64,000 nucleotides of DNA from Microbotryum violaceum (lineage: Eukaryota). Made by a program: the position numbers and the translations under genes. Below the pieces are notes generated by a model that was not told the DNA's origin, did not search any database, and saw only the letters and a program-made list of their open reading frames with translations. The stretch lies in contig CDLV01000004.1 of assembly GCA_001244265.2 (NCBI GenBank), positions 2,418,001 through 2,482,000 of the forward strand, written 5' to 3'. This document shows positions 7,905 to 31,349 of this stretch, piece after piece (the first letter of the stretch is position 1; every line of letters begins with the position of its first letter).

Positions 7905-10735
7905 AGGTGGTCAAACAGGCACCCCAATTTGTGTCCAAATACCCATGGAATGTCACGTTGTTTTTGCGATAAGTGAGGCCCAAGTCCAGTGTGCCTTTGA
8001 TGTACTGGAGGACCTGCGTGATAGCCGTCCAATGCGCGGGGCTGGGTTGTTGGGAGAAGCAAGCAAGGTAGGCGACAACATAAGCAATATCGGGCCTGGT
8101 CCCAACCGCTGCATACGTCAACAACCCGATGGCTTGCAAGTAGCGGGTGCGATCCTGAGGCGTTGCGGACGAGTCTTGGAAATCAAGGACCACACCTGAT
8201 TGCATCGGGATGCTGGCTGGCTTTGCATTGCTGAGTCAGAACTTGTCCAGCAGGTCCCGAAGATAGCGCTCCTGAGAGAGCGTGATGGAGCCATCTTGTC
8301 CGCGCTTCACTTGAATGCCCAGGATGTACTCAGCGGGGCCGAGACACTTGATCCCGTATATGAGTTCCAATGCATCGAGCACTCAATCAATCTCGGCAAC
8401 GGAGGGTCCAACCAACAGCAAGTCATCAACATATAGGGCAATGTAATGCGAGTGCCCGTCGTGGTCACGGCGGTAAATGCAGATGTCAGATTTTGTGGAG
8501 ATGTAGCCGAGCGAACAAAGAGTCGAGTCTATCTCCGCATTCCAGATTGTGCCGGCCTGGCGAAGGCCGTAGATTGACTTCAATAGTTTGAGAATTTTGC
8601 CAGGGAGGTCGATACCTTGGGGAACGCGCATGTAGAGGGGCTTGTCCAGCTTGCCATGCAAGTATGCCTTGTTGACGTTGGCTTGATGAACGTGGTAACC
8701 GTTCGCGGCGGCGAGAGCGATGAGTGCGCGAATGGAGGTGAATTTGACAACGGGAGCGTAGTTCTTCTCGAAATCCAAACCGGGACGTTGTGAACATCCA
8801 TGAGCTACTAGTCGCGCTTTGTGGTCGGTGATATCTCCATGCTGGTTTCGCTTGGTCCGGAATACCCACCCCGATCACAGAAGGATTTCGCCCGAAGGGA
8901 GGCCATAAGATTCGATGATTTCAAACACTTCATACTTGTTGAGAAGCGAATCAAACTCGTCGCGGGCGGGAGGGTGCCAGACCTCCTCTTGGCCCGTTCG
9001 GATAATGTCCCCCCAATTTGCCGGATCACAAACCATGGCTAAGTCGTGCTCAGCGAAGCCTTCTGTGGTCGCTGCGAACGCCAGGATAAGGTTTTTGAAG
9101 GTGTTTGTGGGACCGTTGGGGCCACTGTTGAGTTGCTCCTTTGCGATCATGGTCGGGACAAGTCGACAGCAAGTGCGCGGGCCCTCAATGATGTTATGCG
9201 GGTCAACTTTGCCGTACTTGCCCGGATCAGGACCCACTCTCGCCAGATCACCATGTTCCCACGCCGGCTTGACTTTGGCAGGCGGTTCAGGAACTTGCTC
9301 CGGCGGCGGCAGGACTTCGGCGGCATTGGTCGCGTCGCTGCGGTCAGAGGCGGCTTCGTCATCCGGTGCCGGAAGTTTGTCATTTAGCGGCGGGAGCTGA
9401 TTCGGTGTTGCGCGTGGCCCCTCGGGTTGCAGCATAGGCTGAGCAATCGGGCGGTAACCCGGAATAGACGGAGCTGTCGCGCGTTTGGGCATGGAGAGGA
9501 AGGGGAATTTGGTCTCCACAAATTTGACGTCGCGGCTCAGGCTGACGCGCATGGAGGTGGGGTTGAGGAGCCAATACGCTTTGGCATGATGATCGTAGCC
9601 AACAAAAACGAGAGGTATGCCCTTTGGATCGAGTTTGTTGCGTTGGTGACCCGGGACGGTAGCCCAGGCGCGGCATCCGAAAGCACGGAGAGCCGTCACA
9701 AGCGGAGCGGTACCCGACCAATGATGATTAGGAACTCCCCCCTTGAGGACCGCGTGAGATGATAGGTTTTTGGTGTGGATATAACACACGGCCGCTTCAT
9801 CCCAACACGAACGTGGTAGGCCCGAGTGCAATAGGAGGGCAAGAGTGCCTTCGACAATGGATCTGTTGGCGCGTTCGGCCCGACCGTTCTGCTCAGGCGT
9901 GTATGGAATGGTCAATTTGCGACGGATCCCACGGGCTGCACAATACCCGTTGAAAGCACTCAAGATGTATTCGCCTCCGTTGTCTGATCGTAGGGTTTTC
10001 AAACGGCGACCAGTGGCATTCTTGATTTCCAACAGCCAGTCCTTGAACATCGGCAGCACGTCGCTCTTGTGGCTGATTGGGTACACCCAAGTCTTCCGCG
10101 AGTAATATTTGACAAACGTGACAAGGTAACGGAAGTGATTGATAGATTCCTCTGGGAACGACAGGACATCCGAGTGCACCAAGGCGAGGGGTTCGCCCGC
10201 GTGAGACAACGATGAGGGGAAAGGTGACCGATGGGCTTTGGAGGCTAGGCAGGCATTGCATGTGAACTCTACACACTCAGAGTCACTATAGGTCCAATCC
10301 AAACCCTTCACCTGACCGGATGCCGCCAGCCTTTTAATGGCCTGGATAGGGCATGGCCGTAACGGCAATGAAGGGTAAGTAAAGGGGCCTAGTGGACGCG
10401 GTGGTGACGTAAGCTGGAGGCGCACCTTTGCTGGAGACCTCTATGGTGGCATTGGGTTTGTACACTCGAGACTCGATGGCGGTGGCGGTGGCAATGCAAC
10501 CTTTGGCCATACTGAGCTCAACGTGCCCCTTCTGGACGGTGATGCGGACGCCCTTTCGATCAAAGGCCCAGACGGAGATGAGATTGGCTGGGCTCTCGGG
10601 ACATATATCGCATCATTGAGAATGAGCTTGGTACCGCTGTCCGTGATAAGCTTGACGGAGCAGATACCTGAGGCGTTCACCGTTCCGCCGAGGCCTTGCA
10701 TGACGTGTGAGGCGGGCGAGATGGGACCATCAAAG
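7905..10735 (-). mobile_element. Ty1/copia pol fragment (protease C-terminal half, integrase, RT), degenerate; distal half of the copia at 29896-31349
   Basis: [36 protein letters not shown] (integrase); [39 protein letters not shown] (RT). Cut at both ends by gypsy LTRs. Confidence 0.92.
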
Positions 10736-29895: not shown

Positions 29896-31349
29896 TATTA
29901 CTGTTTCCTCCCACTTAGAATAGATTAGTATCTAGTCGTTGATATTAGCCGCGCGCCTCTAGCCTCCCTAGTGCGCGCGCACTTGGCTCTTCTCTCTCTT
30001 CTCCAACTATCTTTACTACCATCTTCGGCTCTCGTACTTACGTACCTCGTGCCTCGGGCCTCAGGTTAGTCTTGCAATATACCTGAACTATCTTTGCTAC
30101 CATCTTCGGCTCTCGTACTTACGTACCTCGTGCCTCGGGCCTCAGATGTGCCAAAAGGTTATGAGCCACACCGATCTACCAGCCAACATTGCCCTTCCCG
30201 ACAGCGACGACGAAAACAGCATGGCCGGCAACGATGAGACGGGCACACCGCCCCCTCCACCTTCGCCATTGTCGAGCCAACCCAACATAGTCGTCCCTCC
30301 CATGCACGTTCTACTCACACGCGAGCAATTTGATGACCTCGTCAAGAAACGCCGCTCTGTCGATGACGACGACGTGTCCAAGCGGAACCTGCTGCCGCCC
30401 ACGAGCCCTCCGGCATTCCCCGACGAGTCCAAACTCTCGGACAATAACTACGTCGACTGGGACCTCACCATGTCTCTTACCGTGCCTTGCGAGGTATGCC
30501 TATACTTGCGCACCGGTTGCCACGACAAAGCCTGGCTGCCCGAACTGCACTCGCGATGGGAGGATTACGCGGCCCGTGTGCTCGCCGGCTCGCTGACGAC
30601 CGTCGCGAAGGGCACGATAGGCCCCGTCGCTCAGAAGGGCGGAAATGCCCACGCCTGCTGGGTTGCCCTCACGAAACGCTACGCTCCCAGTGATGCGCAA
30701 TCACACTCCACGCTGATCCGTGACTTCTTCAACATGCCCAAACTTCCTTCGACCTGGGCCGGCTTCAACGAGTGGACGAACCGAGCCATGGTTCTGATCA
30801 ATCACCTTTGAATGGCCCAACTCGATCTTGAACAAGTCATATTGGCTCGTATGATCGATGACTTACCTCCCCTCTACAATAGCTGGCGCACCACGTTCTA
30901 CTCGCTTCAGCCGAACAAAAGCAAGCTTCCAGTCGTTGAAGAGATCTTCGTGTCAATGGAATCGGTTGCTCGCACACTTCGCAACGGGTCTACTCCAGCT
31001 CTAGTGGCCCAAACGCCGAGTTCGACGACGAAAGCGGGCCAGAATAGAAAGGGTCGATGGGATAGGTCGGGTCCTCCGCCAGGTAACTGTCCCGCATGCC
31101 AACAAGGCAAGCACTGGGTCGAGAAGTGTCCTGACATCACCAGGCGTAACAAGTACCTCGAGCTGAAGGCTGCATTGAAGGAGTTTAAGGGCGTCTCTCC
31201 CCCCTCCGCTCCGGCCCTCGCCGCGAATGACGACAACGCGTACATGGCCTTCTTCGCTGCGCCCGCCTTTGTGAACCTCAGCAAGTCTGCAAATCTACTC
31301 TTGGACTCAGCGTCCGCGTATCACGTGTTCAATGACTTGTCCTTCTTTG
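29896..31349 (+). mobile_element. Ty1/copia 5' half: LTR (~29896-30156, with internal ~60-bp duplication), PBS, gag, protease N-terminal half
   Basis: PBS GGTTATGAGCC at 30157; gag with [14 protein letters not shown] knuckle and in-frame TGA at 30809; [18 protein letters not shown] protease cut at 31349. Confidence 0.88.

Follow-up and report, generated by a model that had tools for sequence, protein, structure and literature searches.

Split copia element and exchanged gypsy flank point to a 16-kb inversion carrying ARPC5 in Microbotryum violaceum

How can two parts of a single copia retrotransposon come to lie on opposite strands, each ending at the terminus of a gypsy element? The question is raised by a stretch of 64,000 nucleotides from the anther-smut fungus Microbotryum violaceum (GenBank assembly GCA_001244265.2, contig CDLV01000004.1, positions 2,418,001 to 2,482,000, forward strand), hereafter called the window, in whose own coordinates all positions below are given. 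We consider it probable that homologous recombination between two inverted gypsy insertions, X and Y, flipped the interval 15097-31349 (16,253 bp) together with the host gene ARPC5. We favor this inversion because a CAAAG flank is shared by two gypsy copies in opposite orientation, the copia frame is continuous across the two borders that bear this flank, the two flanks of one of these copies are unlike, and the long terminal repeats (LTRs) fall into matching haplotypes. Three parts of the interpretation are inferred: an independent insertion of Y, an exchange that was homologous and also reciprocal, and an assembly true to the real chromosome.

Self-comparison of the window yields one LTR retrotransposon family in three copies, with the coding strand on plus for copy 2 and on minus for copies 1 and 3:
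6443 to 7904, minus strand: gypsy copy 1, with a 5' LTR (7682-7904) and 1.24 kb of body, cut off at 6443
10736 to 15096, plus strand: gypsy copy 2, full length (4361 bp), with LTRs at 10736-10958 and 14874-15096
15097 to 31349: segment between gypsy copies 2 and 3, probably inverted, 16,253 bp, almost all repeat except the ARPC5 island
31350 to 35292, minus strand: gypsy copy 3, with a 3' LTR at 31350-31630 (281 bp) and an intact frame of 1224 residues at 31665-35339

The LTRs measure 223 bp and have TG..CA termini; upstream of the 3' LTR lies a purine tract. On the 1224-residue open frame of copy 3 (minus strand), Pfam places RVP_2, RVT_1, RT_RNaseH, Integrase_H2C2, rve, SH3_Tf2-1 and Chromo in this order, and the same domains are spread over three broken plus-strand frames of copy 2. 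On the basis of this domain order in both copies (protease, reverse transcriptase (RT), RNase H, integrase, chromodomain), together with the TG..CA termini and the purine tract, the family is a Ty3/gypsy chromodomain element of the chromovirus type. The stretch 11216-15020 of copy 2 matches 35292-31484 of copy 3 in reverse at 99.4% identity over 3809 bp, so that homologous recombination has ample substrate in the two inverted copies. The 3' LTR of copy 3 carries a 58-bp tandem duplication (31426-31565), situated between two 24-bp internal LTR repeats and absent from the other three LTRs of the window.

The 5' border of copy 2 and the 3' border of copy 3 both fall in the protease-coding part of a Ty1/copia element, which we call copia-A:
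29972 to 31349, plus strand: 5' part of copia-A, comprising gag (zinc knuckle present) and 18 residues from the start of the protease barrel; alignment to homologs starts at 30158
7906 to 10735, minus strand: 3' part of copia-A, comprising the rest of the protease, integrase, an SH3-like domain and RT; its end corresponds to residue 1357 of the 1499-residue homolog P0002
10731 to 10735, no strand: target-site copy CAAAG, adjoining the gypsy 5' LTR (10736)
31345 to 31349, no strand: target-site copy CTTTG (CAAAG in element orientation), adjoining the gypsy 3' LTR (31350)

On the plus strand, the sequence TCCTTCTTTG runs to 31349 and the gypsy LTR begins with TGTAATAC at 31350; at the other border, ACCATCAAAG runs to 10735 and the gypsy LTR begins with TGTAAGG at 10736. 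The plus-strand frame of the 5' part spans 29972-31348, and the minus strand from 10734 reads FDGPISPASHVMQGLGGTVNASG. When one copy of the 5-bp overlap is removed, the codons S F F D G P follow one another in frame, a reading that was taken from the two junction sequences side by side, no joined sequence having been built. The earlier note on this DNA had claimed that the 5' half of the copia element ends at 31349 on the plus strand and that the rest starts at 10735 on the minus strand, which is true base for base. Its further claim, that the halves joined over the shared CTTTG give one protease frame, agrees with the in-frame codons and with all three close homologs, and its assignment of CAAAG to both the 5' LTR at 10736 and the 3' LTR at 31350, on opposite-strand elements, is correct in that each flank reads CAAAG in element orientation; the coding strands bear out the 5' and 3' labels. 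Per pair, five bases agree by chance once in 1024 cases, and the gypsy ends of the window allow just four pairings of a 5' with a 3' flank, which makes the match more than a chance one.

The homologs provide an independent view of the break. A query with the last 179 residues of the 5' part matched 11 longer proteins, all from Microbotryum silenes-dioicae. When the close homologs were aligned to the window, with alignment rows above 60% identity considered, all three (P0001, P0002 and P0003, which are full-length or long and intact) aligned to both parts of copia-A and changed from one to the other at a single residue. P0001 follows 30161-31348 on the plus strand at 97.5% identity and continues from 10734 downwards on the minus strand, with the switch at residue 396/396; P0002 does the same from 30158-31348 at 95.7% (switch at 428/428), and P0003 from 30161-31348 at 86.6% (switch at 356/356). 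A fourth protein, P0005 (60% identical), aligned to the 3' part only. Across the break point the homologs are continuous and read HVFND(N)SS(F/L)F(N/D)GPI(S/L)PASHVMQGLGG. The split is also visible at the level of the domain: residues 9-48 of the 3' piece match positions 27-66 of the Pfam family Pol_BBD (E 2e-4, 22 bits, below the 27-bit cut-off), and as the match starts at profile position 27, about 18 profile positions remain to be covered by the 18 residues of the other half. Pfam gave no match for the 40 residues before the break, and no gag family at E 0.001 on the 5' part.

Judged by their sequence, the two fragments are parts of one old, degenerate Ty1/copia element that was broken at the site of a gypsy integration, because the homologs run through the break at one residue and the Pol_BBD domain is divided by it. 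The order of domains is gag, protease, integrase and RT, with the zinc knuckle and the start of Pol_BBD on the 5' part and the rest of Pol_BBD, rve, SH3_retrovirus and RVT_2 on the 3' part, and the alignment to the 1499-residue P0002 is collinear. The degeneration is evident from an in-frame stop at 30809-30811, two frameshifts between approximately 10590 and 10370, and further in-frame stops in the 3' part; the last 142 residues and the 3' LTR are absent from the window.

The same abutting halves bear on a scenario without any inversion, in which an inverted duplication of the composite (copia-A with its nested gypsy) was followed by deletions that took a different half from each duplicate. 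Copia-A-like sequence is present at about 12 times the single-copy word depth, and a multi-copy family of this kind is what the duplication scenario would draw on. However, no part of copia-A occurs twice in the window, and the two parts abut exactly at one residue with no overlap. A deletion ending precisely on the terminal base of the copy 2 3' LTR would also be demanded, and the two LTRs of copy 2 differ by states that are common to other copies. We therefore regard this duplication as very improbable.

The flanks of copy 2 are indeed unlike. CAAAG is found on its 5' side and CCCCG on its 3' side, yet the element between them is seamless and full length. Its 3' outer flank is the following feature:
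15097 to 15125, no strand: CCCCG followed by a 24-base C run, the expected target site of insertion Y
The copy stops exactly at the terminus of its 3' LTR, which indicates a junction produced by integration at a separate site rather than by a random break. Its CAAAG flank has a partner 20 kb away, adjoining the 3' LTR of copy 3, which is oriented the other way. Among the four aligned LTRs, nine sites are private to one LTR and two are parsimony-informative; at the latter, the LTRs starting at 10736 and 31350 have CCAGTGA and GTCGCCG and those at 14874 and in copy 1 (7682-7904) have CCAGCGA and GTCGTCG. Copy 2's own two LTRs thus differ at both informative sites. The data argue that these two LTRs would not derive from one integration; the specific pairing of LTRs suggested here rests on the flank and not on the LTR states.

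Based on the above data, we propose the following history. Gypsy X would have inserted antisense into the protease-coding part of copia-A, duplicating the 5 bp CAAAG, and gypsy Y, of the same family, would have inserted approximately 16 kb away in the opposite orientation, at the site that is now CCCCG plus the C run. A single reciprocal homologous (ectopic) exchange between X and Y would then have inverted 15097-31349 plus the inner parts of both elements, and the flipped cargo would include the 5' part of copia-A, a copia-D fragment, Helitron debris and the single-copy ARPC5. Copy 2 would consist of the 5' end of X and the 3' end of Y, and copy 3 of the 5' part of Y and the 3' end of X. Later or separate events would have removed the 5' end of copy 3 and left a further element, copia-B, without matching flanks. 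The inversion of 15097-31349 by ectopic recombination of inverted gypsy copies, as the earlier note proposed it, is supported as the most economical reading, by the exchanged flank and by all three homologs.

Several observations weigh against this history, and those on the LTRs come first. Raw LTR differences amount to four sites plus the 58-bp duplication for the proposed partners (10736 versus 31350), to five for the present copy 2 pair, and to only three for 14874 versus 31350. Of the two informative sites, one is a CpG transition. The gypsy family is present in about 50-100 copies by word depth and has standing variants, and the shared LTR states may reflect subfamily haplotypes. In addition, the 5' end of copy 3 is missing, and with it the place where the second flank (CCCCG) would be expected. 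One pair of exchanged target-site duplications is seen (CAAAG at 10731-10735 and 31345-31349), the second end of copy 3 being lost. That the LTRs at 10736 and 31350 share diagnostic bases from which the 14874 LTR departs is correct at both informative sites, with weaker support than had been stated in view of the raw counts and the CpG site. The view of copies 2 and 3 as reciprocal chimeras is upheld for copy 2, by its unlike flanks and unlike LTR haplotypes, and not for copy 3, which has a single LTR and is without its first 480 bp.

The position of the crossover gives further points of this kind. Between copies 2 and 3 we count 18 substitutions, six of them in the central 2.9 kb, besides four 1-bp homopolymer indels and the LTR duplication. 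A three-way alignment of the copies shows no switch point among the 18 substitutions and four indels, and in the 1-kb overlap with copy 1, the latter agrees with copy 2 at five sites and with copy 3 at five. The 10 non-synonymous differences between copies 2 and 3 were polarized against nine related polyproteins. Those derived in copy 2 are 11548, 11574, 12956, 12968 and probably 14087, and those derived in copy 3 are 11254, 11310, 11655 and 12394; the two sets interleave along the element. In a maximum chi-square scan, heterogeneity is significant only for four differences clustered at 11240-11310; 2 of 2000 shuffles reach this cluster, which adjoins a stretch where copy 1 is not alignable.

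The alignment of copies 2 and 3 that had been suggested as a means to map the switch of diagnostic bases has thus been run, and no switch is seen. From the bases alone, the crossover may lie anywhere from 10736 to approximately 15001 (copy 2 coordinates), including the first 127 bp of the 3' LTR. The suggestion that it fell within the internal regions is one option, the internal body lying in the allowed range, but a crossover located in those 127 bp of the 3' LTR would fit equally well, and it would account for the presence of all four 1-bp deletions on copy 2. These deletions, relative to copy 3, are all differences of homopolymer length (11935, G4/G5; 12284, G4/G5; 14212, C3/C4; 14827, G3/G4). 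For three of the four sites, both states are found among family copies in short-read contigs, and copy 1 has the shorter state at 11935.

A different origin of the differences was also considered. The substitution at 11548 in copy 2 is TCG>TTG (Ser>Leu), which is the trinucleotide context given for a process resembling repeat-induced point mutation (RIP) in a passage of a study on Microbotryum (PMC10502011). As a source of the differences this RIP-like change was rejected, since it fits just the one polarized difference at 11548 and neither of the informative LTR sites.

The remaining points against the inversion concern the assembly. A search of public reads gave 22 runs, all available as Logan contigs built from short reads, and four runs were compared over 9001-29000. 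Nearly all of 9001-26200 is high-copy in this comparison, with 26211-27579 as the sole single-copy island. For this ARPC5 island, one run has a 1373-nt contig identical to the window, and two other organisms differ by 3-4%. In all four runs no contig spans a gypsy copy, the longest piece among the matches listed being 1391 nt, and neither an un-inverted chromosome nor an empty site occurs among the sequences compared. Since a crossover inside repeats makes no new short junction, short contigs would look the same under a real inversion and under a wrong assembly path.

In the latter case, an intact X in copia-A and an intact, inverted Y would exist on the chromosome, and a wrong path through the near-identical repeats would have flipped the 16-kb middle. 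Inverted repeats of 3.8-4.4 kb that are 99.4% identical, with six substitutions in the central 2.9 kb, are the classic setting for such an orientation error, which would yield just this exchanged flank and these mixed LTR haplotypes; the family also stands at about 50-100 times the single-copy word depth, and no spanning read is among the data. From end to end, however, each copy retains substitutions and indels of its own, hence the copies were not collapsed, and a copia element with unlike flanks together with truncated elements nearby shows that real ectopic exchange is common here. An assembly artefact appears unlikely to us, although it is the most serious of the alternatives. The idea that consensus errors betraying the sequencing platform underlie copy 2's four 1-bp deletions was rejected, both states being present among family copies in short-read contigs.

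The search for an un-inverted arrangement elsewhere led to paralogs. Intact copia family members carry the insertion site uninterrupted, and they represent paralogs rather than an empty allele. In M. silenes-dioicae, the ARPC5 ortholog is on a TE-rich contig of 1.02 Mb (TE, transposable element) alongside many TE proteins. The best copia match of that species was rejected as an empty site because it lies about 330 gene numbers from the ARPC5 ortholog, hence is a paralog. A search with the protein disulfide isomerase (PDI) of the window against cluster representatives gave nothing closer than 59% identity, and it supplied no ortholog locus tag for synteny.

If the inversion occurred, was it the only event? 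Beyond copy 3 lies a nest of further elements, and another copia fragment precedes the 5' part of copia-A:
28387 to 29907, plus strand: copia-D fragment with integrase SH3 and RT, close upstream of the 5' part of copia-A
35293 to 39963, plus strand: copia-B, full length, with LTRs of 279/281 bp
39964 to 42752, minus strand: copia-C, part of the element nest
At 35292/35293 the sequence of copy 3 gives way to an LTR of the complete copia-B. The flanks of copia-B are unlike, with CATCC inside gypsy copy 3 and GACCA inside copia-C, it is without a target-site duplication, and its LTRs differ by five substitutions and two indels. A second ectopic exchange within the same 30 kb, by deletion or inversion, probably made it a chimera, and that event probably also took away the 5' end of gypsy copy 3 along with copia-C's RT.

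A real inversion could accordingly be part of a longer chain, with several flips or exchanges involving copy 1, copia-B or copies outside the window. The three gypsy copies alternate in orientation (-,+,-), the copy 1 LTR has the haplotype of the copy 2 3' LTR, copies 1 and 3 are truncated, copia-B is without matching flanks, and copia-A's final 142 residues and 3' LTR are outside the window, all of which would suit such a chain. A single inversion, on the other hand, accounts for the split copia, and the flank of copy 1 (CACCT, within the copia-A RT) matches no other gypsy flank in the window, so that nothing ties this copy to the X/Y exchange. We judge a longer chain to be quite unlikely. 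The specific pairing of the copy 1 5' LTR with the copy 2 3' LTR, as ends of one insertion with a common haplotype, was rejected, the flanks being CACCT and CCCCG. Copy 1 itself breaks off inside RT (residue 360) and abuts the C-terminal region, with integrase and chromodomain, of a different, older gypsy family (5995-6442). This older fragment is 72-92% identical to an M. intermedium protein, and its junction with copy 1 is non-canonical.

With the single X/Y inversion as the favored history, we can describe what it would have moved and where. The host genes recognizable in the window are Mus7 (3-1451, plus strand), PDI (3126-4463, minus strand) and ARPC5 (~26.2-27.06 kb, plus strand), the last of which is in the segment between copies 2 and 3:
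26211 to 27579, plus strand: single-copy island with ARPC5 (p16-Arc); the first coding block is inside the open reading frame 26019-26771, and the C-terminal blocks extend to approximately 27057
The island is 1.4 kb long and edged by a C13 run. Repetitive DNA extends for tens of kb to either side, at a word depth 10 to 700 times higher. The segment 15097-31349 also contains a Helitron fragment (20909-22964) and other high-copy DNA. Among 112 further open frames (at least 100 codons; 15097-28520 and 42700-64000), five match Pfam: two Helitron_like_N, P16-Arc, KDZ and CxC1. The two Helitron-derived fragments, at 20909-22964 and 56592-58592, are ~80% identical to one another. A KDZ transposase with a CxC1 domain is situated at 51411-52939, and an array of an 8-bp repeat with ~45 units at 53630-53992.

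The gypsy family has a peculiarity of its own, namely that a full gag (capsid) region upstream of the protease is lacking. Its frame starts at an ATG near 11054 (copy 2; the region 10959-11300 was inspected, also in copies 1 and 3) and encodes a short N-terminus with one zinc knuckle. This beginning lies ~70-115 residues ahead of the protease, and the relatives P0013, P0014 and P0022 have 210-270 extra N-terminal residues that are unmatched in the element. The family is near-identical between copies, stands at ~50-100 times the single-copy word depth, and has an intact frame in copy 3. It looks like a successful capsid-deleted derivative, which presumably uses gag in trans.

Both the high repeat content and the Helitron fragments suggest that the window would belong to a non-recombining region. 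According to a passage of PMC10502011, Copia, Ty3 and Helitron elements pile up in Microbotryum's non-recombining regions, and Helitrons are rare on its autosomes; inversions between Microbotryum mating-type chromosomes are on record in a passage of PMC5962589. A broader interpretation can tentatively be drawn from these elements together, and we hold it to be possible rather than probable. The window would lie in a non-recombining region, either mating-type-linked or pericentromeric, where ectopic exchange would draw again and again on nests of young, near-identical LTR elements. Within 30 kb, no fewer than two independent exchanges would have occurred, the X/Y inversion and that of copia-B. 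With 4-kb inverted repeats at its ends, the inversion may still be able to flip, and it could be polymorphic between strains or between mating-type haplotypes. If this interpretation is true, it would provide a base-pair-resolved mechanism for the large-scale rearrangement of Microbotryum chromosomes, and the dating of insertions by 5'/3' LTR divergence would misread chimeric elements.

Provided that the assembly is right, the locus represents a breakpoint-resolved, TE-driven inversion in a model genus for the evolution of non-recombining chromosomes, in which the conserved single-copy ARPC5 was shifted relative to its neighbors with its coding sequence untouched. It would also follow that complete LTR elements can be chimeras, which bears on dating by LTR divergence and on calls of transposition burst versus gene conversion such as those in the relevant passage of PMC10502011. 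The mechanism itself is textbook, and Microbotryum chromosomes are already known to be rearranged; there is no new mechanism here. Among the titles listed for Microbotryum on inversions, TEs, ectopic recombination and target-site duplications, none concerns a breakpoint-resolved TE-mediated inversion in this genus. The phrase "chaos of rearrangements" reportedly comes from the title of a 2015 paper, and it recurs as a citation in other papers.

The present locus resembles the non-recombining mating-type regions of Microbotryum in that it belongs to the same genus, in which a build-up of Copia, Ty3 and Helitron elements and inversions between haplotypes have been described (PMC5962589, PMC10502011). 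In the passages of these papers on rearrangement, the scale is that of gene order, and no breakpoint is resolved to target-site duplications (PMC5962589, PMC10502011).

A closer parallel is inversion 2z3 of Drosophila buzzatii, which arose by ectopic recombination between a pair of Galileo transposon copies (PMC2775673). Three criteria were named there: opposite orientation of the copies, exchanged target-site duplications and chimeric copies (PMC2775673). The present case is similar in its homologous copies of opposite orientation at the segment ends, in the exchange of a target-site duplication and in the chimeric copies that we propose (PMC2775673). Here, two homologous gypsy copies in opposite orientation lie at the two ends of the segment. 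For Galileo 2z3, the same source gives both pairs of target-site duplications, a clear switch confined to 141 bp among 53 variable sites, and chromosomes without the inversion that have each target once (PMC2775673). In contrast, one such pair and two informative sites are available here, and no un-inverted chromosome. The elements also differ, Galileo being a transposon of the cut-and-paste kind whereas ours are LTR retrotransposons, so that aberrant transposition is no serious rival here.

The other known systems are LTR elements themselves. In plant genomes, recombination between different LTR retrotransposons is recognized by complete elements with unmatched 5-bp flanks, and the Ty elements of budding yeast mediate inversions and deletions. 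The present locus conforms to both, since a complete element with unlike 5-bp flanks is read as the mark of such an exchange and the inverted orientation of the partners leads to an inversion. In plant and yeast surveys the partner is usually unknown, whereas at the present locus the partner flank turns up 20 kb away, and the interrupted copia frame proves its identity.

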